A stretch of DNA of 61,445 nt, filler included, from Porpidia crustulata (taxonomy: Eukaryota): the NCBI GenBank assembly GCA_964255105.1. It is 5 parts of 5 records of this genome, joined end to end, with 100 filler letters (N's around TTAATTAATTAA, not from the genome) between each part and the next. Parts side by side here need not be neighbours in the genome. Positions count along the whole stretch, not along the records: positions 36,962 to 49,159 come from CAXUWE010000560.1; 4 more parts are not named here. The stretch is one strand, 5' to 3'. Each line of letters begins with the position of its first letter. The stretch's first letter is position 1. Under the pieces are notes generated by a model. It saw nothing but the letters and a program-made list of their open reading frames with translations, did not search any database and was not told where the DNA came from. Shown here piece by piece: positions 7,647 to 54,913 of the stretch. The translations under genes were made by a program, and so were the position numbers.

Positions 7647-10600
7647 ATGGCAAGCCGTCAGAAGTCCTTCTTTGATCAGAAGGTGTGTCACCGTCACTAG
7701 CCCTGGGCAAGAGTGCTTCTAACAGTTAAGACTCGGCAATGGCATTCTCCACGAAATAGTAGCCTCTTCAATCGTGCTTCCGGGCAACCTACCAAACCTG
7801 CAGTGACCATGGCACCTATTCTCCCGTCCTCGGAATCAAAGTCGAAGCTTAGAGTGTTTCAGTACGATCACGCCAGTAGAGCGGACGACGAGGAGCCTAA
7901 AGCTGAGGACATCGAAGCTGAGAAAGAGAATACGAGTAACTTGTGCAATGCATCCAAATCTACAGCCGCGCAAATTCTGCCCCGCACTCAGACTATGTCT
8001 CGCAAGTCCGCAGTCAAGGAGAATCGAGAATGCCCGCAGACACCTGTTGGAAGGCTTGCACTGGCAGAGCTTATCGCTAGTGGAGAGGATTTGAACCAGC
8101 AACGCTTCGACTTGACCCCTGTAGAGAGAGTTCTCTGGAACCAGTCCCCTCGCGGCTCTAATCCTACAGCTTCTACGATCTCACATAAGGGCAGGAAGAG
8201 AGCCAACAGCTCCTCCCCTTCTTCGTCGGCGCACAATGAAACATCAAATCACTTCTCCACGGTCAAACCATCCTTGGATCTACAATCACTAGACAAGTGC
8301 CTCAAGACTCCGAAAGCAGACCCGGCGAACGATCTCTGGAGCCGTTACTCTATTACCAATGAGAGGAAATCGCCAACAGAGAGAAGTGGCCAGCCATTCG
8401 CTCATTTACTAGATTCTTCGTCACCACAAACTCCCGCAGCTTACTTACGAGTAAAAGAAAGCGGAGGACTCAGGAGATCCATTAGTTGTACTACAGAATG
8501 GCCTACCTCCATCACGAAGAGACGAAAATTGGACCATAGCCGTGCTCATGAGGAAGCTGAGATGGCTTTTACTTCAGAGAAAAGCACGCACAGCGAGCAT
8601 ACTAAATCGAAGAGATCGAGAGTTAGCCTGCTTGTAGATAGACTGCACGATGAACTTGCGGCGTCAAGAAGAGCTAGCTGCAATGATGTTGGTGGTCCGT
8701 CCAGTTCATCACCTCTCCCAGAGAAGGGTCGAATCTCTCGGATTGCTCTCAGTAATACACTGCGGTCATCGCAGACCGATGAAAATGATCGTTCATCTAT
8801 CACAAGTGAGGTTCGGGATTGTGAAGTTGTCTCGACCACCCCACAGTTGGTTCAACACTTGAAGGCCAATGCGGGACTAGAACACCAGAAGTGTATGGAA
8901 TCGGATTCGTCGTCAGATTTCGGAGACGATGATCTTGACATCGAGATGCTCAGAGCTGTGGATGCGAGTGTTGAAGAGGACTCCTCAACCGCAATGTTAG
9001 AGGCTACTCAACTACTCGATCTCCCAAGTGGGTCTAGGCTCACTGATGGTCGGCCGCAAGAGAGCCCTATAGTGACGACGCCCAGGCCACCAGAGTGCCA
9101 TGGTGCTAGATCCAACATCGCGAATATTGACTCGATTCTGAAGGTCAGTGGCAAGTCTTCGTCCGAAGCGGCGCAAGTGAAGTCCCCACAGGCGACCACC
9201 GCAAGTAGATATGATGAATTTGATGAGGACGATAACGACGTCTCCGCAGCTGAGCTGGAAGATGCAGTCGCTATGTATGACCTACAGCCCCAGACTATAA
9301 CTCTAGAAGGGTATCAGCCCAGCCTGAGCGATGGATTGCCCAATGGACACAATCGCGTGAGCGCTGCAGCCAACATTGGTTCTGGCGCGTACGAATTTGT
9401 TCCTGGCGATGTCGAGGCCGCCGTAATTGATTTATCTTCTGATGATGAGTTTGGTGGCGCTCTTGATTTTGAACAGATAATCGCTGAGTGTACGGAAGTA
9501 AAGCAACTGCCCCAGGTAGCTTCGCAGCCCCATTCTTCTGTATGTATCAAATATTTCGGCCAATCTAGGTAGTGAACTAAATTTTGCAAGCATGACAATA
9601 GATTCTCTACCATCCGACGTTATCTGATCGTGACTGTTGCTGAAGGACAATATGAGACAAGTAGAGGATTACAACCGGAAAAGGTACTCAAAAATCGCTC
9701 TGCCCCTGTCTTGTCACCTACTGATCAAATAAAGGTGTTACTAGTCCAGGATGAAAAAGCTAAACAGGAGAAAGCCATCATGGCTCGCCAATCATGGTAT
9801 GACAGTCCTTATTCGCCTGGATCATACGTCCATCTTATTGGGGAATTCGACCACACTGGCCAGTGTGTGGTAGACGAGGCTCAAAACCTCCTAATTCTGC
9901 ATCCTGATCATCTCATATCAGCGACAGTAGTAGCAGACTCATTCTCGTGTACACGACGAGCAGTCTTACAGGATCGCGTCAAGGCCACAAGTAAATCAAA
10001 CGAACCACAAATCTACGGCCACATACTTCATGAGATTTTCCAGGAGGCAATGAAGGCTAACAGATGGGAGACCGAATGGCTCACTATGGTTGTTGAGAGC
10101 GTTGCTACGAGGTATCTCGAAACCTTGTTCGAGATCAACGTCGAGATGGTAAAGGCGGTCGACCATCTAATGAGCAAGGTCACATATCTACAATCGTGGG
10201 CTGAGATATTTGTCACGGCAAGGCCAAAGGTGAGTCTTACTGATTATAATGATGAAGTCATTGCTAATTACTAATGATTTAAAGTCGAATGCTCTGGTCC
10301 AAGATCGGAATGGAACTCGCACAATGATGAGTATCAATAAGCTCTTGGAGGTCGAAGAAAAAGTATGGTCGCCCATGTATGGTCTGAAAGGAAATGTCGA
10401 CGCTACAGTACAGATTTTGATCGAGGATGGCATCAAGGAGAAGACGCTGGTAGTGCCGTTTGAGCTAAAAACCGGGAAGCATGCCAATCCATCGCATAAA
10501 GCGCAGACTGCGCTCTACACGCTTCTGCTATCTGATAGATACGGTTCGTGATTTATTTGTCATAGTTTGGCATTGAAGACAGGACTGACTCCCCGGTGCA

Positions 10601-12237
10601 GACGTTGAGATCGCGTGCGGCATTTTGTACTATATGGAAACCTCGGAAATCTCACGCATACCTGCGATACGCCATGAACTCATTCATATGCTTATACAGC
10701 GAAACAAAGTAGCATCGTATGTTCGCCAACGCCTCGAACTACCGCCGATGCTGAAGAGCGTCCATCTATGCAATAAATGCTACGCCCAGACCCCGTGTTT
10801 TGTGTATCATAAACTACTCGACGATGGCAATGGTGAGACGAGTGGAATGAATGAGAAATTCGACGAGGTTGTGAAGCATTTGAATTCCAGTCATCAGGAG
10901 TTCTTCGTCAAATGGGATGACTTATTGACCAAGGAAGAGAAGGACATAGTAAAGTTCCGCAGAGAGCTCTGGACAATGCAAAGTTCTGAACGTGAGAAGC
11001 TGGGTCGTTGTTTTGGCAACGTCATCATCGAGGTAGGGTCCTTTGAAGAGATCAAGGACGCTCCGAAGATCAATCGCTACCGCTATACGTTCTTGAAACA
11101 AAAGACATCACCTGGCTCTTCTTTCACGGAATCGCAAATCACTACTGGGGAGCCTATTGTGATATCAGACGAGAAGGGGCACTTCGCTCTCGCTAATGGC
11201 TACGTTACTTCTGTACGAAAGCAAAAGATTCAAGTGGTTATTGACAGGCAACTTCACAATGCCCGGTCCAGGAGCATTCACTTTGACGCGAATAGGAATC
11301 AAAACTTTGTTGGAATCATGGAAGTTCTCGGGGATGGTGATCAATCGACGACGTCAATGCTACCTCAGCCCGAAAAGGTAGTCTCGTATCGCCTAGATAA
11401 GGATGAATTCAGCAATGGGATGGCTATGGTTCGTAATAACCTGGTTGCCCTCATGGATAAAGACATGTTCGGTGCTCAAGCACTGCGGAGGTTGATTATC
11501 GAAGATGTAGCTCCATTTTTCAGGCCCCTAGCAACACCATACGATCTTACCCATACTGCTAGTCAAGCCAAACTCAACGTGGACCAAAAATGTGCTATCG
11601 AAAAAGTTATGCATGCCAAAGATTATGCACTTGTACTTGGTATGCCAGGCACAGGAAAGACAACCACAATTGCCCATATCATTCGAGCTCTGACAGCTCA
11701 GGGGAAAAGTGTATTGCTCACCTCGTACACGCATACTGCAGTCGACAATATTTTGCTCAAGATTCGCAACGACAACATTGGCATCTTCCGCCTTGGCGCC
11801 GTGGCGAAAGTCCACCCTGAAATACATGAATTCGCAGACTTAGCTGGCATTCCAATGAAGACTGTGGAAGAAATTAAGAGGGCATATGGTCGTCAGGTCG
11901 TTGCAACGACTTGTCTTGGAATCAATCATCCATTATTCACTCAGCGAATCTTCGACTACTGCATCGTCGACGAAGCCTCCCAAATCACGCTCCCTGTCTG
12001 CTTAGGGCCCATTCGAATGGCACGTACCTTCATCCTAGTAGGTGACCATTACCAGCTACCTCCTCTCGTCCAGAATAAGGAAGCATTAGTCGGCGGTCTC
12101 GACATCAGCCTCTTCAAAGTTCTTTCGGAGAACCATCCCTCCTCCGTTGTCAACCTCGAGCATCAATACCGTATGTGCTCAGATATCATGGCCCTCAGCA
12201 ACACGCTTATATACAACGGCCGCCTCAAATGTGGCAC
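7647..12237 (+). CDS. DNA2: DNA replication helicase/nuclease Dna2, 3'-truncated at contig end
   Basis: Nuclease motifs (ISATVVADSFSCTRRAVL, GHILHEIFQ, WSPMYGLKGNVDAT, PFELKTG) and SF1 helicase motifs (GMPGTGKTT, VDEASQ, LVGDHYQLPP, QYRM); several introns; start inferred from the short exon MASRQKSFFDQK. Confidence 0.95.
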
Positions 12238-12337
12238 NNNNNNNNNNNNNNNNNNNNNNNNNNNNNNNNNNNNNNNNNNNNTTAATTAATTAANNNNNNN
12301 NNNNNNNNNNNNNNNNNNNNNNNNNNNNNNNNNNNNN
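12238..12337. other. Artificial contig spacer (N44-TTAATTAATTAA-N44)
   Basis: Six-frame stop linker flanked by Ns. Confidence 0.98.
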
Positions 12338-16105: not shown

Positions 16106-17685
16106 TCACGGTGGCTTCTTGATTAAATCACGAAGCCACTGCAGGACATTCTTCCTAAACCATGTCTTATACTCATGGTTACCCCATTGGATGAGAATAT
16201 GAAGGCGATAGTAGATCTGATAGATCCCATGGAGATCGCTCGTCAAGGCCATGGTGAATGGACCCATGATCACCTGTGAGAAGTAATTTCAGCAAGGACT
16301 TGGACCGAGTAAGCCGATCTTGGTCTAGTACAGATGCAATTACGTACCAAGTCTTCTTTTGCTTCGAAGAAAATGAAGTAATCCCACAAATGACCGTTGA
16401 CGGCAATGGCGGGCATAGGCATGGAGGTATCCCATCCGTGATGCAGACGTCTGCGCAAGGCGCTGGAGGCCCAGATGGCTAATTGAACTTCGGGGTCGCG
16501 GTTTGATTGTGTCTTCTTGATCTCGATGTCGAGGAAAAGGGGACACATGTGTATGTATGATGGAGACTGATTCAGGCTTTGCTCCCCACTCTTTAGGCCT
16601 GCAAATGCTTCTTTCACCAGATCTTCGTCCTCATCATCCAGATTTAGTGCCAGGCACCAGTCCACCATCATTCCGACTGTCTGACTGCTTTCTTCTGTCG
16701 TCACTGTTTGGCCGCTTAAAATCTGTGCGTCGCAGTCCAATTGCGCACTATTAGGCATCACAGGCCGCATCTCTTCGGGCTCAATCGAACATGTCTCGCT
16801 ACAAGGCAGCGGGTTAGTGATGGCTCGTACCACGAATAGGCAACAAGAGGCTACTCACGTGTTTAGTATCTTAAATCATTGCCGATCGGCCATAGCTCAA
16901 ACTCCCCGAGAAGCTTGTTGATCAGACTGCCCCACTGCTTTTCATGTGCTCGACTGTTGTGGGCCCACACAGCTTCTTTCAGCAAGCGATCGGACCGTGC
17001 CTTGAGAGAAGGTAGGAAATTTGAAGGATAGAGGGAACCTTCGAGGTAGTTGAGTGGTCTTGGCGGAATTCTTGATTTGCGAGGGGTTTGTGCATCGGTC
17101 TCATAAGCCTCCTGAAACAACTTTAGCGACGCTCATTGATAGCAAGAAATTGGTTCGGTGTCTACCTTCAGCTCTAGTGGAATGAAACCTACAGGCATGT
17201 TCTGCAGCCTGTCGTGTAGGGTCACAACGCTTTGAGGTATCTCACACGTGGCCTTGGCCGCTTGGAAGCTCTTCATCTTCACCCTTGGCTTATATAATCC
17301 AAGATATGGCATATCAATACTTGTGGGCGCTCTTAGCTGATCGATGTACCTAGCGTTCTTGCGAGGCGAGACGGACTTCCGGCGCGAGACAGGATTGCGA
17401 TTGCTTCGTCGTGGAGGGAACGAAACTTTGTGCACCGGGAATGAGTGGAGGGTTACCGAGACTGTTCTGCTCTTTTGACTGCGGAGGCCGCCCTCGACCC
17501 TGTTTTGTTGGCTTATCTATATTTATTGATAGCTTTCGCTTTCGCTTTGTACCCTCGTTGGCAACATCATGCGTGCGACTCCGGCGATTGTGGGGAATCT
17601 CGAGAAGCTGAGGGTGAAACTGTCTTTTGCACTTGGTCACCTCTCCCACCCGTTGAGTCACACGGGCGGAAGCATCGATTGGCAT
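16106..17685 (-). CDS. Fungal PD-(D/E)XK nuclease-like protein (PDDEXK_12-type), multi-exon, possible frameshift near 17390
   Basis: MVDWCLAL...SLNQ...PLFLDIEIKK...PEVQLAIW...MPAIAVNGHLW and last exon GIYQIYYRLHILIQWGNHEYKTWF match the pattern typical of this fungal family; N-terminus is basic and Ser-rich. Confidence 0.75.
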
Positions 17686-24553: not shown

Positions 24554-24653
24554 NNNNNNNNNNNNNNNNNNNNNNNNNNNNNNNNNNNNNNNNNNNNTTA
24601 ATTAATTAANNNNNNNNNNNNNNNNNNNNNNNNNNNNNNNNNNNNNNNNNNNN
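24554..24653. other. Artificial contig spacer
   Basis: N44-TTAATTAATTAA-N44. Confidence 0.98.
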
Positions 24654-33994: not shown

Positions 33995-36528
33995 ATGCCA
34001 CTTTTGGGGCATGAACGACCACTCGCACCACTCCCTGTTCACCACGAAGCAGAACAAGAGAAATCTCAACCTCAACCTAGAACAGGTCCTGCGCGGAGGC
34101 AAAGTCAGCATTCAGTAATCGCTAAAACTGCCATCATGAGTAATATCAATCTTCCTCATTTCGACGGTTTACACCACCCACTCGAGCACGGAGCAATCTG
34201 GCAAGAAAAGCCATCAAAGCAGGCGTTCGACGCTTATCTTACAGCTCCCGAGCCTAAGACTGCGCCCACCCAGAGCTCAAGTTTGGGTGTTGGTGCGTGT
34301 TTGACTGATACACCTGCAACGACTGCACCAAACAGTCCTAAGAATAGCCCTAGAATGTAAGCATCTCACTATGAATTTGCTGTTTTGTTGTCCTGTCCCT
34401 CATTGTATGCAGTCCACCTCTGCGCAGGGATTCTGGCGCATCAACCCCCTCGGGTCGCAGCCGGCCCACGACCCTCGACATACCTGGCCTGACTAGGTCC
34501 AAAGTCTCTCCGGATGGGCGTATATCTCAACGCGATATCGGATCGAAGCTGATAATAGTGATGGTCGGGCTGCCGGCCAGGGGAAAGAGCTACGTTACTA
34601 AGAAGATTGCGAGGTATCTGAATTGGCTTCAACATGATACGAGGATATTTAATGTAGGCGAAAGAAGGCGCGTGGTCGCTGGAGGGCCATGTCGCAGCGC
34701 CCCGCTTGTTCAGACGCAAAGAGAGTTTCCTCAGGATCCTCCTGGATCAATGCTCACTACAACCTCGTTGAACGGCATCTTGAGTCAGAAAGAATTTCTC
34801 GGCCCGCCAGCGCTACCGACCACGATCCTTGTCAACGGAGAGCTTCCCTCTGATTCTTCGACTATCCAGGATCCTACACCATCTACTTCGGAGACAACAG
34901 ACTCTCACAGTCACCAAGCAAGACCTGTTGCAAGTGATACTTCTAGCCTATTATCGATCGAAAGCAACACTTCTGAAGATACAAGGGAGAATTCCACAAG
35001 TCAAGCCATAGAAGACACTGCGGATGCTATGGAGCAATCTGCAAATTTCTTTGACCCAAACAATGCCAAAGCCGCCCAGATTCGCGAGCAAGTCGCCATG
35101 GAGACTCTGGACGAGCTCCTAGATTATATACTTGATCAAGGTGGGTCCGTAGGCATATTCGACGCCACAAACAGTACGCTTGAGAGGCGGAAGGCTATCA
35201 TGACGAAGGTTAGAGAAAGGGCGGGACCGGAGCTTGGGGTTCTATTTCTTGAGTCCCTCTGTATCGATGAGAACGTATGTTGGCTAAGATGCATCTCAAA
35301 AAATCCTAGCTGATCGTGCGCTAGCTTTTGGAGTCAAATATGCGTCTCAAGCTTTCCGGACCTGATTACCGTGATCAGGATCCCGTGACAGCGTTGGCAG
35401 ACTTCAAGAAACGTGTAAGTCTGTATGAACAAAAATATGTGCCACTTGGCGAATATGAAGAGCGAAACAACATGCCCTATATCCAGGTAGGAGTTTTGGC
35501 GATTTTGGAGGTCGTGAGAAGGATAATTAATACTTGATAGATGATTGATGTTGGGCGGAAGGTTGTCTCGCATCAGATTCGAGGTTTCCTATCAGCCCAA
35601 ACGGTCTATTACCTGCTAAATTTCAATCTCTCACCAAGGCAGATCTGGATCACTAGACATGGCGAGTCCCTGGATAATTTGAATGGAAAAATCGGTGGTG
35701 ATTCAGACCTAAGCGAGAACGGTCAACATTACGCAAAAGCATTGATGAGGTTTATACAACATGAGCGTCAGGCTTGGGATATTCGACAGCAGGACAAGGC
35801 AGCTTCAACGCATTTTCCTCCACTGCCCGGTGATACCACACCACCAAATCCCGAGTATTCGTACCATGGAGATCAGAATAGAGATGACTGCCCCAAAAGT
35901 TTCTGTGTATGGACTTCCATGCTCAAGAGGAGTGTTCAGACCGCTCAATATTTCGATGAGGAGGAATTTGATATCAAACAAATGAAAATGCTAGACGAAC
36001 TCAATGCTGGTACGATGGAGGGTCTTACGTACGAGGAGATTCGGACTCAGTATAATGCTGAATATGAGTTGCGCAAACAAGACAAACTTCACTATCGATA
36101 TCCGGGAGCCGGTGGAGAAGGTTATCTAGATATCATCAATCGCCTGCGAGCCGTCATTGTTGAGGTGGAAAGAATGACCGACCATGTTCTTCTTGTTGGG
36201 CATCGTTCCGTCGCGCGAGTACTCCTAGCCTACTTCAAAGGCTTGAAGCGGGAGGATGTAGCCGACCTTGATGGTACGAAAATCCTAGCTATGTCACTCG
36301 GGAGTACTACTAATCTATGATTTAATGGAATATAGTTCCACTGGGTATGCTGTACATGCTCGAACCTGTAAGACTCCATGCCCGCAAATGAATATTCCAC
36401 TCTGACATACTCTTCAGAAACCATACGGAGTGGACTTCAAAGCTTATCGATACAACTCGGAAAAAGACTGGTTTGATTACGTTCCGGAATATGAGCTGCG
36501 CCGAGCGGCTTTTCAGTCATCAAATTAG
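33995..36528 (+). CDS. PFK26: 6-phosphofructo-2-kinase (Pfk26-like), multi-exon
   Basis: MVGLPARGKSY P-loop, FDATNST, RHGES phosphatase-like motif, DELNAG. Confidence 0.92.
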
Positions 36529-36861: not shown

Positions 36862-36961
36862 NNNNNNNNNNNNNNNNNNNNNNNNNNNNNNNNNNNNNNN
36901 NNNNNTTAATTAATTAANNNNNNNNNNNNNNNNNNNNNNNNNNNNNNNNNNNNNNNNNNNN
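36862..36961. other. Artificial contig spacer
   Basis: N44-TTAATTAATTAA-N44. Confidence 0.98.
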
Positions 36962-37324: not shown

Positions 37325-40300
37325 CTAAACGCCGAAATGGATATAGGGAACCCAGTAGTAGTTGGTCGAGTCTCTTGCCTGATCCCCAAAGCCTAGCAAA
37401 GTAGCATTTCTTCCCTTTGTCTTCTCAATTCGTCCGTCACGTAGCGCTCTGACTGCTCGATGGAGTCCTTCACAAACGGCCTTGTCCGTCATGCCTTTCT
37501 CCCGTATCGTCTCGTACAGTACTCTCGCCACATCAACGCAGTGCTTATCCGAAACTTCCCAGAGCGTTCCAACAACATGCCGGAAACCTGCAAGCTGGAA
37601 GGCACTAACGAGGTGGATTCCCTCGTCCCTGAGCTTGTCTACCTCGTTTGCCCCAGTCGAACAGGCTGAGAGGAAACCGAGAAACGGCGGATTTTGTTGG
37701 AGTTTGTAGTTGCGAAGGTCCGCTACCGTTAAAGGATTGCTTTCCCAATCTTCTAAAAACAAGCAGCTTTGTGAAGGTTCCTCCGGATCCGAGTGCCCGT
37801 GACCTGCAAAATGGAATATCTTACACGCTTTCATGTTGTTAAGAACATCCTCCTTATGCCGCCTCGGTTCAATTGGCTTCAGCTCGAGCGATGGGCAAAG
37901 ATCTTTCAACATCTCTACTTCATCTGCAGCAAATGGAAGGATTCGATTCATGGTAATACCTGGCGTTTCGCGCATGGCAACCAGAAGAGCATGGTCAGAC
38001 AGAGGCCTTGAGAGGATGAAAACGTGATTTTGGCGCCCATGTATCAATGCCTTGATAGACGAGACGTATGATGACATGACTCTATCAAGTACTGTCTCAG
38101 TGGACTCTTGCGCGTGGCGTCCAGCTGCATGAAGCGGTAGTTGGCTGAGTTGTCCAGTAGGAATCCACCACACACGAGGCCATTCGTCATCCGAAATAGG
38201 TTTACCAAAACCTAGTGCCTCTAGAACCGGACGACCGAGAACATCCCAGAGCCACTCCAGCATTGGTGTTGAATGAAAAGAGGCTTCTACACGGGACGAT
38301 CGTAAATTCCGGGCCCATTTCTCGACTCCCCGTTGCGTCAAGTCGGGCAACTCCAACACGCTAATCCCATCGCGCTTGATGAGGAACGCATCACAACGAT
38401 AGGAGCTTATATTGACGACAACAATAGGGCCTAGATCTGCAGCAGCCTTCAGCTCATCTTCGGTTGGTGGAAGGAGAAAATGGTTGAATCGAGGCTGAGC
38501 ACGAATCTCCCTAATTACTTCGTGGAATCTGTCCTCTGCTTCACGACGACCTTTCGCTCGCGATTCTCGGTAAAGTCTACCTTCACCAGAGGTAAGGGAA
38601 ACCGCCTGATCGGTAGGTGAGTCTAATTCGTCTCGAAGAGATGAAAATCTCTCTGCTAACTCGGCATGCTGTTCCTCTAGGGCTGATATGTCGGTACGCA
38701 TTTCCAACAGTAAACCTGCAATAATGCCGCGACCGAGTTCGATGAGCTCTAGAGCATTATAGGCATCGTTCCCTGCGTTCAGAGAAGCGGCCGCAGCATC
38801 GGAAGCTATGCCGGCAAATTGTGATAGCATATCTTGTTTATCGGTGTGTCGTAATGATCGCGGGCTGATAGCAGGGAGAAGCTGTACAGAATCGCGCAGA
38901 AAAGTACTTGATACTGCCCAATCTAACTGAAGAGCAAAGAGGCGACCTGCTTGCCGACCCAAAGAAATACGGGACTGACGGCCGAGTGCCATGGCATTCC
39001 CAGCCTTCCTTGAAATAGGAGATGGCTCGTTTCAAGTCTTCCATCACCTTCGTCTGCCTAAACCGCTCTTGATACCAGATCCCAAGGTTATTCAACCACT
39101 CACCTCGACGAGACTGATCAAGGGAGGTAATTTGCACTGCCACTCCCGCAGCTTCGATCGCTTGGTCAAGATCTTCCATTATTTCTTCTCGCTTATATCG
39201 CTCATATAAGCAAACCCCAAGGTTGCTAAACCGGCTAGCTCGATCCAGATGGTGTTGAGAAGTGGCGTGTACGGCTATATCGGTAACCTCGATACTTCGG
39301 TCAAGATCGTCCCTTGCTTTCGTCTGTTCATATCGTAGCCCAAGCAACATCCCGAGGTTAAGAAACGACCCTGCTCGATCAGGATGATCTTGAGGCGTGG
39401 TTTTCACCGCCATAGTGCTAAATTCCAAGGCACGTCTAAGATCGTCCCTCAGTTTTGTACGCTTAAACCGTCTTCCGAGGAATGTTGCAATGTTATTGAA
39501 GATCGTAGATCGATCCCGGTCTTCAGGAGTGGTAATATTCATGGCTACGTGCGTAGCCTTAATCGCCCTGTCAATATCATCTATAGCCCCTGCTTACTCA
39601 AATCGCATGCCGAGAAATTTTCCCAAGTTGATAAGGAATAGAGCTCGATTCGGATGACCGCAGGGAGCAGCGTCAACGGCTTCTTCAGCAATCTCAACAG
39701 CATTATTAATATCATTCATTCTCCCCATCCACTCGAACCGTCCGCCGAAGCATCTCGCAAGATTGATAAGGCAGTCAGGTCGAAACTTGTGGTTTGAAGG
39801 GATAATATCTACGGCCAGTTGAGTAACCTCAAAAGCCCTATCAAGATCTTGCATCTCTCCAGTCCACTGAAACCGACATGTCAGCTTATTTCCAAGGCTA
39901 CTTACCATCGCAGCTCGATTTGGGCTGTTTGGAGAGCTAGCCTCTATGGCTGTATGATTGGCCTTAACAGCATGCTCGAGATTATCCATTATTCCTGTCT
40001 GCTCAAATCGCCGAAAGAGCAAACTTCCAAGATTAGAAAAACGGTGAGCTCGATGGGGGTAGTCAGGTCGCGTAATAGCCACTACCATCTTGGCAACCTC
40101 GACTACGCGGTTGAGGTCTTCCGAATTCCATGTCATATTCAGGACCCTGTCGCTTACCATGGTACGGTCTATTATGGCAAGTGAGGTCCCCTCCATACCG
40201 GCCTGCTGATTCACCTCCGCTAGGTACATCCTTGCTGACAACATATTAGAGACTTCAGACCGCTGTGCATGCTGCCGATGGTTATCAGGTGTCAACGTTA

Positions 40301-41812
40301 CCCATTCTTTCGCTCGTTGAACCGCTCGCTGTAGGTATTCCGTCGAGCCTGTTCTCTTGAAAACGAGGAAACATGTACAGATACATAGTTCAAATTGCAC
40401 ACTGCTCGTAGGATCTTCGTGAAGCTCTGCGAAAGAACGAAGGTCTTCATCGTCCATGTCATGGAGAGTAGAGACCATTTCCGGCTCAATTGTAAAGTGT
40501 TTCGTTATTTCAGCCATATCATGGGCACCTACCGCTGCAGCTGTCTCGACAAAATTGACTGCATGGTTGGCATCATGTGGAAGCCCTTCCCTGGATCTAA
40601 GACTTATCAAATTAATGTCATGTATTTAGCACTGATAGACGTACTCTGGCATACCGACTTTCACTGTGAATCCTCCGCCATCTGCGTTATCGATATAAAC
40701 ATTGACACCTGCCTCTTGTACTGTGGTCGTTATTTCGTCAAGATCATCCTGCAACCCTGTGCGGCAGAACTTTGTAAACATCATTTTGATCCAATCGTAT
40801 ATTCGAAACCAACGGTCAGGGTGGTCTGGAGATGTGGCTGCTACCATCTCCTGAGCACGGAAAATTGCTTCCTGAAGATCATCCTGCGAGCGTGTATGCT
40901 GATATTTCTTGACCAACATCACAATAAAGCTTTTCAAATAGGACGTGTAAAGAGGATTGTCGATCTTGATGGGCATTTGTTCTTTGGTTCGGTTAAGAGC
41001 GCGTTCAAGATCTTCCACCGCTTCGGTCTTTAAGAATATAGCATAATAGACACAGCCCATGTGTTTGTCATCCTCGGTATCCGAATTGACCTGTTCTTTT
41101 TCGCCATTCACTGCAAGATGGCGTAGCTGAACTAAGTCCATGTTTTTGAGCAACCGCGACCCAACGACCACATCCCCATCCAGCTCCCTGTAGTATAGCA
41201 AATTTGACACTTTTCCGACAAAACCAGTGCTTGCCGGATCTACTATACGGGAATGGCTGCTGCTTGGAAGTGCCTCGAGCGAGTTAGTAGAGGCAATAAG
41301 ATCGTAGGGAAGAGCATCGTGACTGTCTACGATATGGTTGCCCGCCGCAGCCTGGGATGTAGGTGAATTTGGGTTGTCGAACCCAGGTTCGGAGAGGCTC
41401 TCTGTTGTTGGTAAGCGTTGCGGCCGCTTTTCTTGGCCTTGAGATGCTGCCTGAGCTCCATCTGCTACGGTCTCTACATCGAGTTCTCGGATTCTCTTAC
41501 GGACTATTTCTACTTGTCGCTGCAAATCCCTTAGTTCCTTCTCTCTTTCTTCCAATTCTTGCAGAAAACGGGTCTTCTTTTTGTCCCAACTTTCACTAAT
41601 CTAGAACGTGTCAGTTGTTAATGTTGACTGACAGTGTAAAGTGGATCGCTTACAGTAGTATCACCATTCAAGATCCGCGCCTGACTCTGCACTCCTTCAA
41701 CGATTGAATTTAGGCGAGAGATAGTAGAAGCCTTGCAGAAACAATCCCTTTCAGACCGGTTAGCAGGCTCGCATGAATCCTGATTCGCAGTAGCCTCTCC
41801 TATGTTGGACAT
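37325..41812 (-). pseudogene. TPR-repeat + CHAT (caspase HetF-associated) protease, disrupted
   Basis: Repeated 'DLDRAI...A...P.DHPDRA...NLG' TPR-like units; CHAT motifs WWIPTG.L..LPLHAAG, FHFAGHG, LSACSTG, FQLAGF.HVVGTLW and WVPYIHFG. In-frame TAA at 39596-39594 and a +1 frameshift near 38972. 5' start approximate. Confidence 0.88.
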
Positions 41813-42600
41813 TGCGCTGGCTCGGAATGTAAATGCTCTTCAGTCTGATTGTTCTCGCTTTTAGGTAAGTCTGATGAGCTTCGCAGAACATCCTTGAGCA
41901 ATCACCTTGCAAATCGGAAATTTCTGGCATTAGTGAGTCCACATGATGCTGCTCAATTATGATGTACAAAGTTATCAAAGAGGTGAGAGCCTTTAATTAG
42001 CGAGACAGCCTTGTCCAGAGCCACGTAGAGAGCCGAGAGGTCCGAGGCCATAATCCATGCAGCTGACAGCGTGACAGTCCCGCCAGCCACCGGGCAATAG
42101 GAGCTTTAAGTAGAAGCTATTGGAGAATGGTAACCACCACAATTCCGACGAAGTGGCCGAATTTGTGATAGCACTAATCAATCTGTGAGCCTGAAAAGCT
42201 GCAGGCTGGCCTGTCATGGCTCGGAACAAGCTTGAATGCTGTAAGGTAAGCAGGTATGGAGATTAATCATCGCACTTTTACGTGGTCGAGGCTCGAGGCT
42301 GAGCAGCCAAGGACCCGAAACATGGACGCGAACTAAGGTACAAATGTAGACTGGAGCTGCTTGATATGCTGCTGGTATCACTAATGAACCATTAACAATT
42401 TTTGATATTTGGAATGACGCCGGATGGACCAGGTCGATATTTACTGCACTCGCGTAGCGTTATAACAATATATCTTTGCAGTCAGGCTTTGTTATCAACG
42501 CTTTGTTATCAACGCTTTATTTTGGGTATTCCGTCCATTTCCTTTGTTACAGTCTTCAGATCCGCGATTTGTCCGCCTGTCATTATGATCAACGGATCTG

Positions 42601-44625
42601 ATAACTACGATAAACCATTTCGCAGTTCTAATCGGAATCAATTTATACGTGAAAGATCGTCATCTCCAAGGTAGCGTGTGAGATGCAGAGATGGTCAAGC
42701 AATATCTTGAATCTGGACTAACACCCGTAGATACCGTCATTCTTACTGCGACAACACCTCCGGATCCCAGCTCTGGTCGTCCAATCGAGAACCCCGACTT
42801 GTGGCCAACGAAGTCGAACGTGGTTTCCGGGCTCAGCAGGGTGATCGAAAGAGGGAAACCACGAGATTTCGTCTACATTCATTTCTCCGGACACGGGACA
42901 CGAATCGAAAAACCAGCAGGACCCAAGCATCCGAACACTGGCGAGCTAGCTTTGGTTCTTTTCGAGAACAATGGATGCAGCTATCTCAGAGGTGAGGTTC
43001 TAGCAAACGCCCTCCGTCAGATGGTGAAGAAGGGACTCTTTGTGACGCTTGTCCTTGGCTGTTGTTTTTCCGGGAGCGCCGTACGCTACAGCGGTAACCA
43101 CGGCGTCGGCATCCGAGCCACTGAGTACGACCGTGCTTTCGATACCGAGCGCCCGCAAGAACACCAAGAGAGTTTATCTGGAATAACTGGCACTTTGCGT
43201 AACGCTCCAGTGGTGTCTAACTGGCTTGTCGATCCCGAAGGCTATGCGATCCTTTCGGCCTGCGGCCCACATAAGAAGGCATGGGAACTAGAAGTCGAGG
43301 GAGGGGGGCGAAGAGGAGCGCTCACTTACTTTCTCATTGATGCTCTCAGCACATTGAGGAACAAGGGTGTGGAACTTGCACACCAATCCCTGTATCAGTA
43401 TCTCCGCACAAGATTTCACGCATCCTGGCCGCAGCAGACTCCAATGCGATATGGAAATGGAAATTCTTCATTTTTTGGGGATTTTGGCGCTGTACTGGAT
43501 ACGACCCTTATCCCTATTTACACAACGCATGATAATCGACTGTGCTTAAGCGCAGGAGAAGCACACGGCGTACGCAAAGGTGATGAGTATGCCGCATATC
43601 CGTTTCACGAGCCGGAAAGCACCCTAAACCAAACAAGAGCAGCGCCGGTAGTGGTCAGAGTCGACACCGTTCGATGTCTTACATCAGATTTGTTGGAAGT
43701 CGTACCTGGATCTGCTGTCAAGGTAATTGAGGCAGGCTGGAAGGCAAAGCCAGTGACTAACCTCTCCCTTCGGAAGATGACCGTACGACTCATGGCGAGC
43801 GTGAGCAACCCAAATCAATGGATGGAGACTGGCAAGCAGCAGCGTTTCCTACGCCTTTCCACAGAGAATGCGAAACCGGAACCCTGCATTTTTAATCTTG
43901 TTCTCAATGAAAACAATGAATACGAACTACTTGATGGGTATAGTAAGAGTGTGATCAGCTTGCCAACCGTACCAGCAGATACAAACGGTGCGTTGAATAT
44001 CATTATGGATGTCTTGCAGCACCTTGCAAAATTCAAATACTTCGAAGGAGTGGAGAATCGAAGGCCTAGTCTAAACTTTGAACGCTCATTTTCTCTTCTT
44101 CCCTTGTCCGAAAATCGAGCATTTGGCGCTAGCGATGTAAAGCATGGCGACGTGTGGGGTTTCACGATCGAAAACTTCAGCGATAGACCATTATGTTTAG
44201 CCGTATTCGACTGTGCCCCGTCCTGGCAGATTTTAAATCTGGTATCGGTGGATGGTGGAGGGGACTTTCTGGTTTTGCCGCCGAAAAAGGAGGGGAACAA
44301 CGGCAAGCAGAAAATACAGTTACGGATGGAGGTCCCCAAGTTTCTTCTAGATCGAGGCCTGACTGAATGCGAAGACATAATCAAGATTTTCGTTACTAGC
44401 AAGCCAACCTCTTTCTCATCGGTAATTTTGCCCGAAATGCCCTTCCAAGCTAGAGATCTGCGTGGGCGTGTAGGCGGCACTGTTGATCGGCTATCCAATT
44501 TCGTCTCAGAGCTAACCGCAGGTCACAGAGGTCAAGATGATGCTATCCAGGAAGAGTGTGCAACTCGAAACTTTACAATATGCACAGCTGTGGGACTGAA
44601 AAAAAGTTGTAACGTCGCGATTTAA
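42601..44625 (+). pseudogene. Caspase/metacaspase-family (peptidase C14) protein with a long C-terminal extension, disrupted N-terminus
   Basis: HFAVLIGIN...LQGSV*D (TGA at 42679) lies in frame upstream of the 42691 ORF; HFSGHG catalytic His; VLGCCFSG catalytic Cys; ILSAC and RGALTYFL motifs. Confidence 0.88.
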
Positions 44626-45421
44626 GCCTTCCAATCAAACTTGTTTTAAGTGTTGCGTAACACCTCCCAGCATTGGATACAATTTGCTTTCTTTTTCACC
44701 CGAAAGGGTTATACAACTCCAAATCTTTCTCTTCAAAAGCCTTGTTGCCGTGAACGGCCTCCATATTTGCATCGCAGAGTATATATCGGCCATCCTTCAC
44801 AGAAGATACGGTGTATGGGCCTTCGCGTGTCTTCGTTTCAGGAACATAGAGATAAACCTCGTCGTTTGGCCGAAACTTGACGTTCTAGCAATCTTTAGTA
44901 ATAGCGACTTGACTTCCACCGTGTATCCTTACGGCAGCATATCTAGCGACATGAGGACGATCACAATCTTCGCGGAAAGAAAATTCCGGAGTGTGCATAT
45001 TTCTACAGGAGATGTTAGTGCGTCATTAAATCCATCAACGAAGAGTATTACTCTTTAGATGGATTCGGTCTCTTATTTCGTGGAGTTTGTGAAGTTGAAG
45101 ATATTGTTGCCACGATGCGAGGTACGGTGGTGTACGAGGGGCAAGTGAGAAGGAAACAAGAGGGCGCGCGAGCTTGTTGACCAAAACTCCCAGAGTCGTA
45201 TATAGATGCTGACCAATTTTATTCTTAACCTGTCACAGTGACCTATTACCCAAGGCGTGCTTTAGTTATGCCTTGCAGCCCTGCAGCCTTCCCCCACCAA
45301 CCCTCAATGTTGGGCATCATCAGTGCCCAATCATCTCCTCTAAAGTACCTAAAGTAGTCCTTTCGTTGATAGAAATAATGACTCCTGTCAACACGCACCT
45401 ACCGATTGTTATTACGGCACT

Positions 45422-46636
45422 ATGGCTCATGCGCGGGAAGTCGATATTGAACTCGATCCGCGCAGTGATTCATCTTCGGCATCCCCTTGTAACTCCAGCA
45501 GCTCGGGTACCAATTGTGTTAACAAAATCAAAGCTGCAATAGCATGCCGGACAGCAAGACCATCAAGGGATATTTCAGAAAACAAGGATTGCGATTTGCA
45601 AGTAAAGCAGAGTATCAATTGGCCTCGAGATTCGGGAATATAATGCCTTAGATGGCTGACTCTCCTCAGTCAAAGATTACCCAGCTGGATATCCCCGGTT
45701 CTCGGCACTTATTTCTTCTCATGATTCATTCCATATCTGCCGACGCTTCTCTAAGCTACGTACACGCCTCCTTCTGTTGAAACAAGACAGTTTGTCAGTG
45801 CTGGAAGAACGACTGGAGAAGATCGACCGAGAAGAGACTGTGCCTTTATGTCTCGGAAGTAGTCGAAGAGATAACAACACTGAAAGGAACTCGGTTCTTT
45901 CGGAGATCCACATTGCCCTAATGGAATATGGCGCGTCATATATGCCTTGAATCTAGAAAGAATTCATTCTGACGAGCGACAGATGAGATGATAGAAAGAA
46001 ACCACCGCATACTCGGCTTCGAAGCCGCAAGGCCGCGAGACGTGCTGAACCTGCAAAATTGGGTTAACGGGAGTGGCTGCATAGCTAGGGAGGAGACTGC
46101 ATACCTGCAAAATTGTAGAGAGCTGCTCAGCGTAAATTCTTTGGATGACCACGCCATCACATGGTTAGAAATCTTAGTAGGAGGAATCCTCGTTCAACTT
46201 TCGAAGTGTTTTGGTAAAGTATGAGGTATCTATGCGCTAGCCATTTATAGATGACCGCTAAGCCCGTTATAGCGCCATCGCCTCAACATCTCGAGAGACC
46301 CGAATGTACACATATCCTCCCGGTCATCCACTATGCGGATAGCCCGAATCATTATAACGCCACTTATACTTACTCTTCTTCTTGCTCCCGTGGTCGTCTG
46401 TAACTACTTCAGCTACTTGTCTGCTAGATTGGCCATAGTCATACTCGCAACTACTATCTTCATTACAATCTTATCTGGCTTGACCGAGGCGAAAACTGTT
46501 GAACTAGTTGTAGCAGGTACGACGTACGTACGCAGTCCTTCGTCACATCACTTGAAATGCGGATTTGCGGCTGATGTACAAACATAGGTATACAACTGTC
46601 CTAGTAATATCTGGTACAAACGTAGCTACACATTGA
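45422..46636 (+). CDS. DUF6594-like protein with C-terminal transmembrane helices, multi-exon
   Basis: DYPAGYPRFSALISSHDSFHICRRFSKLRTRLLLLKQD..LEERLEKID; LQNWV; C-terminal IITPLILTLLLAPVV...LAIVILATTIFITILS...ELVVAGTTY; one apparent GC-AG intron at 45931-45982. Confidence 0.8.
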
Positions 46637-49159: not shown

Positions 49160-49259
49160 NNNNNNNNNNNNNNNNNNNNNNNNNNNNNNNNNNNNNNNNN
49201 NNNTTAATTAATTAANNNNNNNNNNNNNNNNNNNNNNNNNNNNNNNNNNNNNNNNNNNN
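49160..49259. other. Artificial contig spacer
   Basis: N44-TTAATTAATTAA-N44. Confidence 0.98.
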
Positions 49260-51516: not shown

Positions 51517-54500
51517 ATGGCTGCAGATGCTGAGCTTGCCATTGCAGCAGCATTTCTAGCCCCTGTGCTACAAAGAGGTAGCCTTGGGACGCGGTCGTTC
51601 TGCAAGCTCTACTGATTCAACGTCACAGAAAATATCATCGAGGCCAAAGGAAAGTCGATAGTGAGCATTTTGGATCCTGGAAAAGGAGATGCAGGCGCTA
51701 GAGACAGGGTCGTTTGTAAAGCTCTATTGATTTTCTTAAACATACATCATGCACTGGACCAAGCATCTGGTGAATCGCAGCAGTCAGATGTATCTCGGAA
51801 TCCGATTCACCGTAAGATCGTTGATGGCCTCCTAGATCTCATCTCCTTGGAGGGCATCTACCCTTGTCTCTCATCAGGCGTTGGTGTTCCGATTGAGCGA
51901 CGAGTAATGTCAGTCTTGAAGGACGGCATCATAACGAGGACATCCTCTGTAGAGGATGTCCAGGAAGCAAAAGACAAGAGGCTACTGGTCAGAATCATGG
52001 CTGACTTATATGATGTTGCATCTTGTAAAACAACTGGCCTAGTACCCGCACTCAGAGAAAGAACGATGGTAGATGTTATTGCTGGCCTAGGTGAGCTGGC
52101 TTACAATCCAGTGTACATTAATGACATATCCGGGGCGAAACATGTTGAACTACTTGAAGCTTTGCTCGAAACGTATGTAGCAATCTATTACTTATCGCCA
52201 TCAACGCTATCGATGAAAACTTGACATTTGAACGCCACTCATGTAAGCTAATTGGGTACTCAGGGTCCCGACTTCGACTCTACTTCCAACTTTGACTTCC
52301 CTCATTAGACCCACTACCCCATCATGGCTTTCTTCTCATCTATCTACCTTTTTGTCTCTGCTTCCGTTACGCTCTAATGGCGTGCAGCAGACTATCGGCT
52401 TCATTGCTAGCACCGTACCTCAAGAGCACTATCATTCTGAGAAGCAGAGCTTTACTCCTGATGGCAAGTCTCGCGATTCAATTTTTTCTCTAGAGATCCT
52501 CGACCGAGTCTCGAAGCTCTTAGTGGCGGTCCCAAGCACTTTGACGGCACATGCATACTTCTCTGCGCTGGGACCTCAACTTCTCCAATTGCTTGATGGT
52601 CAAGATATTGGTATGAAACGAGCGGCCGCTTACATCATTGGCAACGGTATCCTTGGACGGCGCAAATATGGATCGTCTGGAACTGTTGGATGGGAGGTCT
52701 TCGCCCAGCCGATTATTGGAGCAATTGACCCGGAACGAAATGGGATAAGGGCATCGAAGAGTCCAGAGGGCCGTGGTAAAAAGCAAGGCAGTACTGTAAT
52801 TGTGTCCGAACCTTCACTCAGTCGAGCTTTAAACCGGTTGTCTTCCTTACTACTGCTACATCCTAATCCGGGCTTAACAAAGAGGCTTATTACGTCCCTT
52901 TTGCTTCCAATGTGGGGTCTTTGGTGTTACTCGAAAGAAGCTAGAAGATCCAAATGGGCTGATGAAATCTACGAATTGTTCTGTATTTACTTCAAGACTG
53001 CCGCAGGGGTGGAGCAATTTATTTGCTTGATCGACCAATTGCGGTGGGATGGAGGTATACTATGGACGTATGGGGCCGGTCCAGACGGTGGTATCGAGAT
53101 TCGTGAACGTTTAGAGGCTTCGTATGAGGGTCCAAACGTCGTTGCAATTGTAGAGAATATTGATCGCCGTTTGCATGAAGTAACGCGATTGCTGGCAGCG
53201 CAAGTGCTGAACGACGAGGGGATCAACACTTTGTTCCTACATGTTAGCAAGCACTGGTTACTTGGGATCCGAACAGTATCGAGTCCAAAGAGTCTGAAAA
53301 TGGACGATGAAACTATCGAAGAATCACTACTGCAAATCTTATACGCCAAGATGACCCAAAACATCCTCTCGAAATACAAAGATAAGATTGCAGCAAATCC
53401 GAATAAGATCATGGAACTCGTGGGTCAATTGCTGGCTGCATTCGCCGCCGAGAATAGAGATACTGAGCTCCAGAATTCAAAAGTGTCTAAACCTTCGATC
53501 GCCGGGCTGAGCAGTCTCTTGAATCCCGAAACAAACCGTAGCCTTGGATCAGATAGTCATCTTGTTACCAGCCCAGAAGAATCGATAGAAGTTGTTTCTC
53601 TAGCGCTTAATCTACTCCTCACAATATTACCTTCGTCCGATATTTCCCTGACTGCTGCCCTCGTTGACTTCGCTGATATGCGGCGTAATCTCAGCTACTT
53701 AATGACATCCCGCACGCTTCCAACTTCTTTGGTCTTTGCAGCCACAAGTATCCTTGCCCTGCTGGATCTAGAGAATCCGAATCCTTCATCCACGAAAATC
53801 GAGATGCCGGAATCGTTGAATCGCTTCGAAGCTGAGCGCAAGTCTCACGCTCTTGCGCTCACATACGTAGTTGACCCCCTACCTCCTGTACGAGCGCAGG
53901 GTATTGCATTGCTTACGGGACTTGTGAAGAAATCCTCTCCTGTTCTCGATGTTCCTTCGTCCGCGATCTTATTATTATCTCTCCTCCAAGACGAGGACGA
54001 ATATATCTATCTGTCAACCATACAGGCCTTGGGCTTGCTGGCATCCAAGCATCCAAAGACTGTAGTCAAGATGCTAGTGGATGACTATATAGACAATTCG
54101 GAAAGTAAAGAGCTTGACGTAAGGATCAGGGTTGGAGAGGCAATACTAAAGACTGTCAAAAATTTGGGTGGGGATTTGACAGGGGAGCCAGCTAGTCTGA
54201 TTGGTGAAGGGATGATCGCCATGGCGGGAAGGAGAGGTCAACGAGTTAAAGAAAGGGAGGCAAAAGCGAAAAGATCGCAACGGTATGCGAAAGCCAGAAA
54301 AGAGGTTAGTGACGCATGGGGCGGTCATGTACCATCACTTGGTGATGAAGTCGAAGATGAGATGATTCAAGGGCTAGCAAATAATGTGGAAGGCTGGGAA
54401 GGAAGTCAGGGGGAAGAAGACGTGCGGATGAGGGCTTCTTCCCTTTCCATTCTTGGGGTGGCTATAGAGACGAATGTTGCGGGGATAGGTCCCACAATTG

Positions 54501-54913
54501 TTTCTACAGCCTTGGATCTTGTACTTTCCATACTGAAGCTCGAAACCATCAACACAAAGGCGATACTCAGAAGAGCGGCCGTCCTGGTAATCATGAGCCT
54601 AATCAAAGCACTGGACACAGTAGACGAGAGAGGCAGCGATATCAGCCCTGGAATGGCGGGAGAGAATCTCTTGGAAGTGATATCGGTCTTGCGATACGTA
54701 GAGGCAACGGACTCTGATGAGCTAGTGGTTGGGCACGTCAGAGTAGTGATCGAAAGTCTGGAGACGTGGCAGTCAGAGTCAATACTCGGCATGCCTCGGT
54801 CGATCCTGGACTCCAACCCAAGGGTCAGCGTCAAGAGAGGGCAGCTGGCGGGCCTATCAGTGGTTCCGGAAGTATCAATAGCATCTCGGCCTAGCATTGA
54901 AGAGATTGGATAG
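51517..54913 (+). CDS. RTP1: RNA polymerase II assembly/import factor Rtp1 (TANGO6-like HEAT protein)
   Basis: LLDLISLEGIYPCLSSGVGVP, DPLPPVRAQG, LQDEDEYIYL, RIRVGEA, DVRMRASSLSI and LRRAA motifs. Confidence 0.85.

Follow-up and report, generated by a model that had tools for sequence, protein, structure and literature searches.

A conserved four-gene cluster with TPR-CHAT and metacaspase-like C14 protease genes: a decayed copy from Porpidia crustulata

Introduction

Could two caspase-like proteases encoded side by side in a fungus form an initiator/executioner cascade, and is the copy at hand still able to run it? The question is raised by a locus of Porpidia crustulata at positions 37325-46636 of a joined stretch of ascomycete-type DNA (61,445 nucleotides (nt) in full, referred to here as the window), where a gene combining a TPR array with a CHAT protease domain and a long metacaspase-like gene of peptidase family C14 are transcribed away from each other in the company of a DUF6594 gene. 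A sequence-only reading of the locus had put forward a fungal module for cell death or immunity, in which the TPR array would sense a ligand, CHAT would cleave and activate the C14 protease, and the output might run through the DUF6594 protein.

Regulated cell death in fungi is explained mainly via HeLo/HELL, gasdermin and NOD-like receptor (NLR) pathways, and what metacaspase-like proteins do in fungi is disputed. To our knowledge, an initiator/executioner protease pair has so far been shown only in animals and in one bacterial system linked to clustered regularly interspaced short palindromic repeats (CRISPR). Both fungal TPR-CHAT genes in gasdermin clusters and bacterial CHAT-to-caspase cascades are already known. 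According to the report on the latter (Steens et al., preprint 10.1101/2023.06.23.546230), SAVED-CHAT activated by cyclic triadenylate (cA3) cleaves and activates PCaspase, which cuts a sigma factor and the small inhibitor PCi; the type III-B CRISPR locus of Haliangium ochraceum is ordered SAVED-CHAT, sigma factor, PCi, kinase (PCk) and PCaspase, and activation of the system gave an abortive-infection phenotype. The same report discusses Craspase, in which Cas7-11 is associated with the TPR-CHAT protein Csx29 and with Csx30, Csx31 and a sigma factor. In Podospora anserina, the TPR-CHAT gene Q2L-6 clusters with the gasdermin gene Q1-6, as stated by Clave et al. 2022 (PMC8851545). No paper on a fungal C14-CHAT cluster was found, as judged by title and abstract, nor any naming DUF6594 or PF20237 (supplements lay outside the scope of both searches), and a 2025 review (PMC12881547) mentions neither C14 nor metacaspase.

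Results

A recurrent four-gene cluster

The locus is a decayed copy of a four-gene cluster conserved among filamentous ascomycetes, and this cluster is real and recurs. Pfam finds the TPR-CHAT, C14 and DUF6594 domains named in the sequence-only reading, whose description stands for the three genes and for the divergence of the two proteases; their spacing, given as about 0.8 kilobases (kb), measures about 984 nt from 41600, where the CHAT frame has its upper end, to the C14 ATG (42585-42587). DUF6594 does not follow C14 immediately, as had been stated, since a conserved gene for an 84-amino-acid (84-aa) protein sits between them. Gene models were built from homology and splice signals only (Table 1).

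DNA of metagenome contigs was fetched with an alignment of 33 C14 relatives, which yielded 79 loci. Twenty-six of these were classed as fungal-like by hand, on the basis of long-frame cover, identity and Pfam context, and the presence of four near-duplicate pairs among them (97-99.9% identity) leaves 22 distinct loci. Partner genes were counted with local hidden Markov models (HMMs) and tblastn within 10 kb of C14. By this count, DUF6594 and the small gene each lie beside C14 in 15 of the 26 loci (12 of the 22 distinct ones), CHAT does so in 13 (10 distinct), and all four genes occur together in 10 (8 distinct), in keeping with the module proposed earlier, in that the genes form a conserved unit. 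The local HMMs for DUF6594 and for the small gene matched none of 133 prokaryote loci. Domain assignments were confirmed with Pfam in nine fungal loci, the 100 scanned frames of which gave no Pfam match to gasdermin, HeLo or NACHT. Gene order and strand vary among loci and the C14 proteins share only 22-56% identity, which argues that the linkage is old and has been maintained; some loci carry two C14 or two CHAT genes. By simple arithmetic, random placement would bring CHAT to within 10 kb of C14 in 13 of the 26 loci only at a density of about one CHAT gene per 29 kb of genome.

The same association is seen in named genomes, where, by a reading of the match tables, the contig has the same size as that of a listed C14 relative for 17 of the 53 relatives of DUF6594 and for 22 of the 120 CHAT relatives listed. 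Consecutive locus tags occur in Monosporascus sp. mg162 (DL768_005585/005586), Trichoderma cornu-damae (Trco_008002/008003), T. guizhouense (A0O28_0005680/0005690), Hypoxylon sp. EC38 (K449DRAFT_387313/4) and Mytilinidion resinicola (BDZ99DRAFT_451574/5). C14-DUF6594 fusions are annotated in 5 of 120 listed C14 relatives (P0036, P0053, P0084, P0115 and P0120), but these may be merged gene models instead of true fusions, because DUF6594 begins with a short exon and several loci have the small gene placed between C14 and DUF6594. The three closest listed relatives of the window C14 (68-73% identity) and CHAT (69-75%) are full length and lie on shared contigs of 31,966, 54,699 and 10,869 nt; hence, intact orthologous clusters exist.

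Both protease genes are broken

In the window, both protease genes are inactivated, while the small gene and the DUF6594 gene look intact. Each protease gene carries one extra C, causing a frameshift, and one in-frame stop. The TPR-CHAT gene can be read in one frame from 41600 to about 38975 and in another thereafter, the change falling at ...TRPSV / RISLGRQAG..., where the homologues in loci L015 and L005 are uninterrupted. Its TAA stands where the intact L015 gene encodes the R of RFERTG, the frame is the same on either side, and no intron fits that would explain this stop. The extra C and the TAA thus deprive the window CHAT gene of an uninterrupted reading frame. Similar decay is seen in other CHAT copies, with six in-frame stops in L017 (566-2227) and one in the upstream copy of L060 (1925-4846), and loss by pseudogenisation may be common in the CHAT family of this cluster.

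In the C14 gene both defects fall within the first 33 codons. The ATG at 42585 opens a start of the type MxNGS....K that is common to the window and its closest relatives, the window reading MINGSDNYDK followed, in another frame, by HFAVLIG, where the homologous protein P0002 reads MTNGSNTATKHWAILIG. The frameshift and the TGA precede the first usable Met (42691), at which the gene caller's protein P0001 begins, and that protein is without the first beta strand of the fold (HWAVLIGIN in intact genes). The window C14 is therefore either a pseudogene or a gene truncated at its N-terminus and starting from Met 42691. No excess of damage was found in the remainder of its frame, as 5 of 129 highly conserved columns deviate, compared to 0-23 in 32 relatives; since this lies within the range of the relatives, the decay looks recent.

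The stretch is contained in only one public sequencing run, which is probably the window's own source. In Logan's independent assembly of that run, a 12,123-nt contig (word depth 10) is identical over all 9312 bases of 37325-46636, with 0 differing letters and 0 gaps. The only other in-frame stop that was checked, in the Dna2 gene of the window, falls within a canonical intron and so needs no sequence error to account for it. We take the four defects as real for the sequenced isolate, with a small chance left for error. As both proteases are broken, the pathway cannot run from the window copy.

Features of the encoded proteins

Pfam matches both CHAT and TPR_10 on the minus strand at 37325-40625. 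The CHAT match (PF12770) has an E-value of 5.6e-36 and 124.9 bits against a cut-off of 24, and covers profile positions 2-288 of 289. A candidate catalytic dyad is formed by the His at 37799-37801 (H411) and the Cys at 37661-37663 (C457), both invariant in an alignment of 16 bacterial and fungal CHAT domains; its assignment draws on a spacing that resembles that of H375/C422 reported for SAVED-CHAT. The CHAT half is 58% identical to the intact homologue in L015 and 56% to that in L005, and the closest relative of the gene among the matches listed is P0172 (75%). Four frames of the TPR-CHAT gene gave no Pfam match to an NTPase of the NACHT/NB-ARC type; some CHAT relatives, e.g. P0181 and P0275, do carry an NTPase domain.

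The Peptidase_C14 match (E-value 3.2e-07; score 30.7 bits, above the cut-off of 21.4) lies in the plus-strand frame 42682-44625, and homologues of about 670 aa are spread over the Pezizomycotina, the best reaching 73% identity among the matches listed. Across 33 C14 sequences no change is seen at H68, C124 or C125, and D123 is almost invariant. The window retains the catalytic His and Cys, as it does in CHAT, and has Gly (43057-43059) in place of the Asp preceding the Cys pair. A profile of 40 C14 relatives matches solved metacaspases with an E-value of 6e-24. The fold was judged on a model of the 73%-identical homologue P0002 and not on the window protein (predicted local distance difference test (pLDDT) 74.7, predicted template-modelling score (pTM) 0.74), with Foldseek also being used. 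Residues 8-303 of this model form the caspase-hemoglobinase fold of metacaspases, the best match being AtMC9 (8a53_A, Z 24.8, root-mean-square deviation 2.7, 241 residues aligned), followed by AtMC4 (6w8r, Z 24.0), GSU0716 (Z 23.4) and yeast Yca1 (4f6p, Z 18.2). Beyond the metacaspase fold lie about 370 extra residues arranged as a small beta-barrel and a beta-sandwich, which gave weak matches to generic folds of these two kinds (Z about 8). The low-confidence loops of the model, at residues 193-216 (the p20/p10 linker) and 631-658, suggest places where processing could occur.

For DUF6594 (PF20237), Pfam matches three plus-strand exons at 45660-46587 over profile positions 1-234 of 238, two of them scoring 73.1 and 48.3 bits, above the cut-off of 30, and one 25.5 bits, below it; the local HMM gives an E-value of 3.8e-48. 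The ATG at 45422 begins MAHAREVDIELD and splicing yields QIKDYPAGYPRF, a reading that fits both the D[IV]ELG motif near the N-terminus of the family and its consensus QIEDYPxGYPRF. A start at MADSPQS (45653) was considered, but the exon upstream of it, at 45422, was preferred. Nor is the GC donor of intron 2 counted as a defect, since loci L001 and L019 have GC at that site as well. In the predicted structure (pLDDT 70.7, pTM 0.50), a disordered N-terminus is followed by a long hairpin of helices and, towards the C-terminus, by three hydrophobic helices. Foldseek returned no match for this model at E <= 0.001, and VIA returned generic helical hairpins only (best Z 9.1, below the level that the tool takes as meaningful for helical proteins). 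Gasdermin was not listed in the fold searches of the C14 homologue and DUF6594, an absence that does not exclude one. A predicted complex between the Biscogniauxia C14 protein P0052 and the soluble part (residues 50-245) of its DUF6594 neighbour P0121 scored 0.00, which is evidence neither way. In a separate protein of a lichen fungus (P0159, 1366 aa), a protein kinase, ankyrin repeats and DUF6594 are joined in one chain, which hints that DUF6594 can be the membrane end of other signalling proteins.

The small gene was recognised through its conservation beside C14 in other loci (tblastx and tblastn). Its protein has a conserved C-terminal domain with the consensus KFRPGDKVYL...REGPY...GKYTLCDENG..., and in a search of 1.84 billion proteins a profile of the 55 conserved C-terminal residues matches 355 representative clusters (E <= 1e-3), mostly 60-150 aa long. 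The protein gave no Pfam match at E <= 0.05, and its atlas look-up score was below 0.9.

Bacterial counterparts

The other 53 loci from metagenomes are bacterial-like, and the long-C14 relatives in them are full length, at 25-30% identity. With HMMs, CHAT was found in the flank of long C14 in 15 of these 53 loci and beside it in 13 of 80 genome loci. Four of 10 scanned loci are arranged as TPR-CHAT, a sigma factor of the extracytoplasmic function (ECF) type, a zf-HC2 anti-sigma factor and long C14, and in other bacterial loci TPR-CHAT directly follows C14. The bacterial parallel drawn in the sequence-only reading is thus supported, in that a TPR-CHAT and long C14 pair is found in bacteria too, in the gene order of the SAVED-CHAT/PCaspase locus. 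Among species genomes, long C14 is commonest in filamentous cyanobacteria, Acidobacteriota and Chloroflexota. PADLOC matches bacterial long C14 over its full length to the model 'caspase' (PDLC02987), with E-values of about 1e-36 to 1e-38. The 80 genome loci include no Haliangium locus, and the structure matches of the long-C14 profile include no solved PCaspase chain.

Loci without TPR-CHAT often show another arrangement, consisting of a lysozyme-PG_binding gene, a VanY or C39 peptidase, long C14, a caspase-nSTAND1-WD40 or CHAT-NACHT gene and an LCAT-type lipase. This cyanobacteria-like cluster recurs in L025, L033, L034, L054, L059, L066, L068, L072, L074, L076 and others; its phage-type lysozyme and VanY/C39 peptidase genes each carry PG_binding_1, and it looks like a multi-protease island for cell death or immunity.

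Coordinates and surroundings

Table 1. Positions of the four genes, their exons, catalytic sites and defects along the window.
Feature	Position	Strand	Basis
TPR-CHAT protease gene, disrupted (pseudogene)	37325..41600	-	Pfam and homologues; 5' end and start codon undefined
CHAT catalytic domain	37331..38266	-	Pfam; stretch 256-567 of frame 37325-39031
Run of three C with one extra base; frame shift between TPR and CHAT parts	38971..38973	-	Homologue alignment
In-frame TAA inside a TPR repeat (RFE*AGAIDDIDRAI)	39594..39596	-	Homologue alignment
Probable 48-nt intron GTACGT...TTAG, holding stop 40626-40628	40597..40644	-	In frame, canonical ends
Long metacaspase-like C14 gene, disrupted at 5' end	42585..44625	+	Pfam and homologues
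Extra C following codon 10, which leaves ATG in a different frame from conserved HFAVLIGINLY	42615..42616	+	Homologue comparison
In-frame TGA; homologues have R or Q (GSV[RQ]DVE)	42679..42681	+	Homologue alignment
Catalytic His (SGHG, 42892-42894) and Cys-Cys (43060-43065)	42892..43065	+	Alignment
Small conserved 84-aa gene, apparently intact	44696..44998	-	Conservation beside C14 in other loci
Small gene, exon 1	44933..44998	-	Model matches full-length relatives, e.g. P0294
Small gene, 48-nt intron	44885..44932	-	Model matches full-length relatives, e.g. P0294
Small gene, exon 2	44696..44884	-	Model matches full-length relatives, e.g. P0294
DUF6594 gene, apparently intact	45422..46636	+	Pfam, three exons
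DUF6594 exon 1	45422..45611	+	Family consensus and N-terminal motif
DUF6594 intron 1 (58 nt)	45612..45669	+	Family consensus across the splice
DUF6594, further exons to stop	to 46634..46636	+	Pfam, splice signals

Elsewhere in the window, Pfam identified a tRNA ligase (1-2187), Dna2 (7701-12289), 6-phosphofructo-2-kinase (34375-36320) and RTP1 (51616-54913), together with a mitochondrial carrier, a P450, an FMN dehydrogenase, an actin-family gene and a protein kinase. The description of the contig as lacking recognisable housekeeping genes does not hold for the window, which, the P450 aside, contains all of these. In line with the observation that no gasdermin is visible on the contig, the frames of the window gave no Pfam match to gasdermin. 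Frames of the PD-(D/E)XK nuclease family PDDEXK_12 lie at 16270-16854 (minus strand) of the window and at 16156-16842 of L017, the latter a few kb from the L017 cluster. The window also contains eight runs of exactly 44 N, arranged as four pairs about 12.3 kb apart (12238-12337, 24554-24653, 36862-36961 and 49160-49259); so even a spacing points to masking or stitching rather than to the usual gaps of an assembly, and the genes described here are untouched by them.

Discussion

The reading of the cluster that we tentatively favour, although we put it somewhat short of an even chance, is that intact copies encode a cascade from CHAT to C14, of which the window holds a dead copy. What speaks for it is gene neighbourhood. 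By analogy with the passage from SAVED-CHAT to PCaspase, the TPR-CHAT protein of intact copies would act as sensor and initiator and would cut the long C14 zymogen; activated C14 would then act on partners encoded nearby, with the 84-aa protein as a possible regulator or inhibitor (compare PCi) and DUF6594 as a putative membrane-anchored target or effector, and the outcome would be a stress, immune or cell-death output without gasdermin. A ligand sensed by the TPR array, the cutting of C14 by CHAT, an output by way of DUF6594 and any part in cell death or immunity are all inferred.

The reported SAVED-CHAT/PCaspase system and the fungal cluster share a CHAT protease fused to a sensor and a separate C14 caspase-like enzyme, both of clan CD and encoded together, with a small partner protein and a regulator encoded between or beside the proteases. 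The bacterial long-C14 relatives resemble it in their order of CHAT, sigma factor, a second small gene and C14. The sensor is a TPR array in the fungal cluster and SAVED in Haliangium, the fungal cluster has no CRISPR or cyclic-oligonucleotide-based antiphage signalling system (CBASS) context, and DUF6594 and the 84-aa protein stand where Haliangium has a sigma factor, PCi and a kinase. Craspase, in the same account, resembles the bacterial relatives in linking a TPR-CHAT protease to a sigma-factor module, but it is RNA-guided and has no second protease, and nothing CRISPR-like is present in the window. Within fungi, the HET-Q2-like/gasdermin clusters (PMC8851545) offer a comparable arrangement, in which the gene for a protein with N-terminal TPR and C-terminal CHAT adjoins that of its presumed target, in clusters of two or three genes. 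In the cluster described here, by contrast, the neighbours are a second protease and two proteins that could not be assigned to a characterised family; the window and the nine fungal loci gave no Pfam match to gasdermin, and the C-terminal domains of C14 match generic beta folds only. Metacaspases (MC9 8a53, MC4 6w8r, Yca1 4f6p) superpose on the fold of P0002, and their His-Cys dyad is conserved in long C14. Unlike classical metacaspases, long C14 has some 370 further residues forming beta domains and belongs to a cluster in which CHAT, DUF6594 and the small gene also occur; its copy in the window differs in addition by having no intact 5' end.

Several observations weigh against a cascade. 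Nine of the 26 fungal-like loci carry neither CHAT nor DUF6594, and while four of these are contigs under 5.1 kb, the other five (L003, L011, L012, L038 and L073) have several kb of flank, so C14 also occurs without these two. The share of bacterial loci with CHAT is low, and many bacterial long-C14 relatives adjoin caspase-STAND-WD40, CHAT-NACHT, lysozyme and lipase genes instead. DUF6594 and the small protein matched no known fold or family, and the roles given to them are for this reason guesses. The likening of PCaspase to long C14 follows gene order. The lack of excess damage in the window C14 means either that its decay is recent or that the remaining frame is still used. Finally, pairwise identities of C14 and CHAT do not co-vary (Mantel r 0.12-0.20, p 0.2-0.3, 9 units), so that the congruence of partner trees, which the sequence-only reading had named as a check, gave no signal; either the partners have been reshuffled or the sample is too small. 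The earlier interpretation is therefore supported in part, for the conserved unit and its bacterial parallel.

It is unlikely, in our judgement, that the linked genes serve proteolytic signalling rather than cell death, with DUF6594 as a membrane-tethered regulator in the place of anti-sigma and sigma factor and the proteases releasing its soluble N-terminal part to alter gene expression or membrane function. Such a role would fit the ECF sigma and zf-HC2 anti-sigma genes that lie between TPR-CHAT and long C14 in bacterial operons, the succession of a soluble helical part and three hydrophobic C-terminal helices in DUF6594, and the cleavage of a sigma factor by PCaspase. However, neither a DNA-binding domain nor any other known one is present in DUF6594, it showed no similarity to anti-sigma factors (no profile comparison having been made), and activation of the bacterial precedent is reported to have given abortive infection (10.1101/2023.06.23.546230).

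The absence of co-variation between C14 and CHAT is also compatible with proteases that are linked without forming a cascade, acting in parallel or in reverse order, e.g. with the beta-rich C-terminal domains of C14 as sensor or scaffold and a shared substrate cut by CHAT or by both. The loci with two C14 or two CHAT genes point the same way, as do the other proteases with sensors, caspase-nSTAND1-WD40 and CHAT-NACHT, that are paired with long C14 in bacteria and the extra beta domains of C14, to which no role has been assigned. We nevertheless regard this arrangement as improbable, because the only tested CHAT-caspase gene pair is reported to run from CHAT to caspase, and because long C14 has no recognisable ligand-binding repeat, whereas CHAT has its TPR array.

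There is a slim chance that the protease genes are not truly broken, the extra C's and stops being low-depth assembly errors or private to the isolate and the module being functional in the species. That only one public run contains the stretch, that both frameshifts fall in short C runs and that the remaining C14 frame shows no excess of damaging changes could all be read in this way, but the Logan assembly agrees letter for letter, two of the four defects are base substitutions, and the in-frame stop of Dna2 has its explanation in a canonical intron. It is very improbable that the genes are neighbours without shared function, gathered as fast-evolving and often duplicated families in the same variable genome regions, for although the families of CHAT and DUF6594 are large in fungi (1469 and 53 matches, respectively) and several copies elsewhere are also decayed (such as the L017 CHAT), the four families adjoin in loci of such low C14 identity and differing order, the protease pair is linked in bacteria too, and chance would need the CHAT density calculated above.

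Beyond the tentative CHAT-to-C14 cascade, a wider proposal, which we consider possible but doubtful, is that filamentous ascomycetes possess a widespread and previously undescribed gasdermin-independent pathway of cell death or immunity of bacterial ancestry, with TPR-CHAT as initiator, the metacaspase-like protease as executioner, the 84-aa protein as restraint and DUF6594 as output. In eukaryotes it would correspond to the CHAT-sigma/anti-sigma-PCaspase cassettes found in multicellular bacteria, and, in common with other immune loci, it would frequently be lost by pseudogenisation, the window being a case of this. The window contributes a dead copy only, and its value lies in the cluster to which this copy points. 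If the proposal is true, the sensor-bearing CHAT and a second caspase-type protease would give fungi a genuine initiator/executioner pair, DUF6594 and a small protein family without a Pfam entry would gain their first functional context, and a testable bridge would be established between bacterial and fungal immunity.

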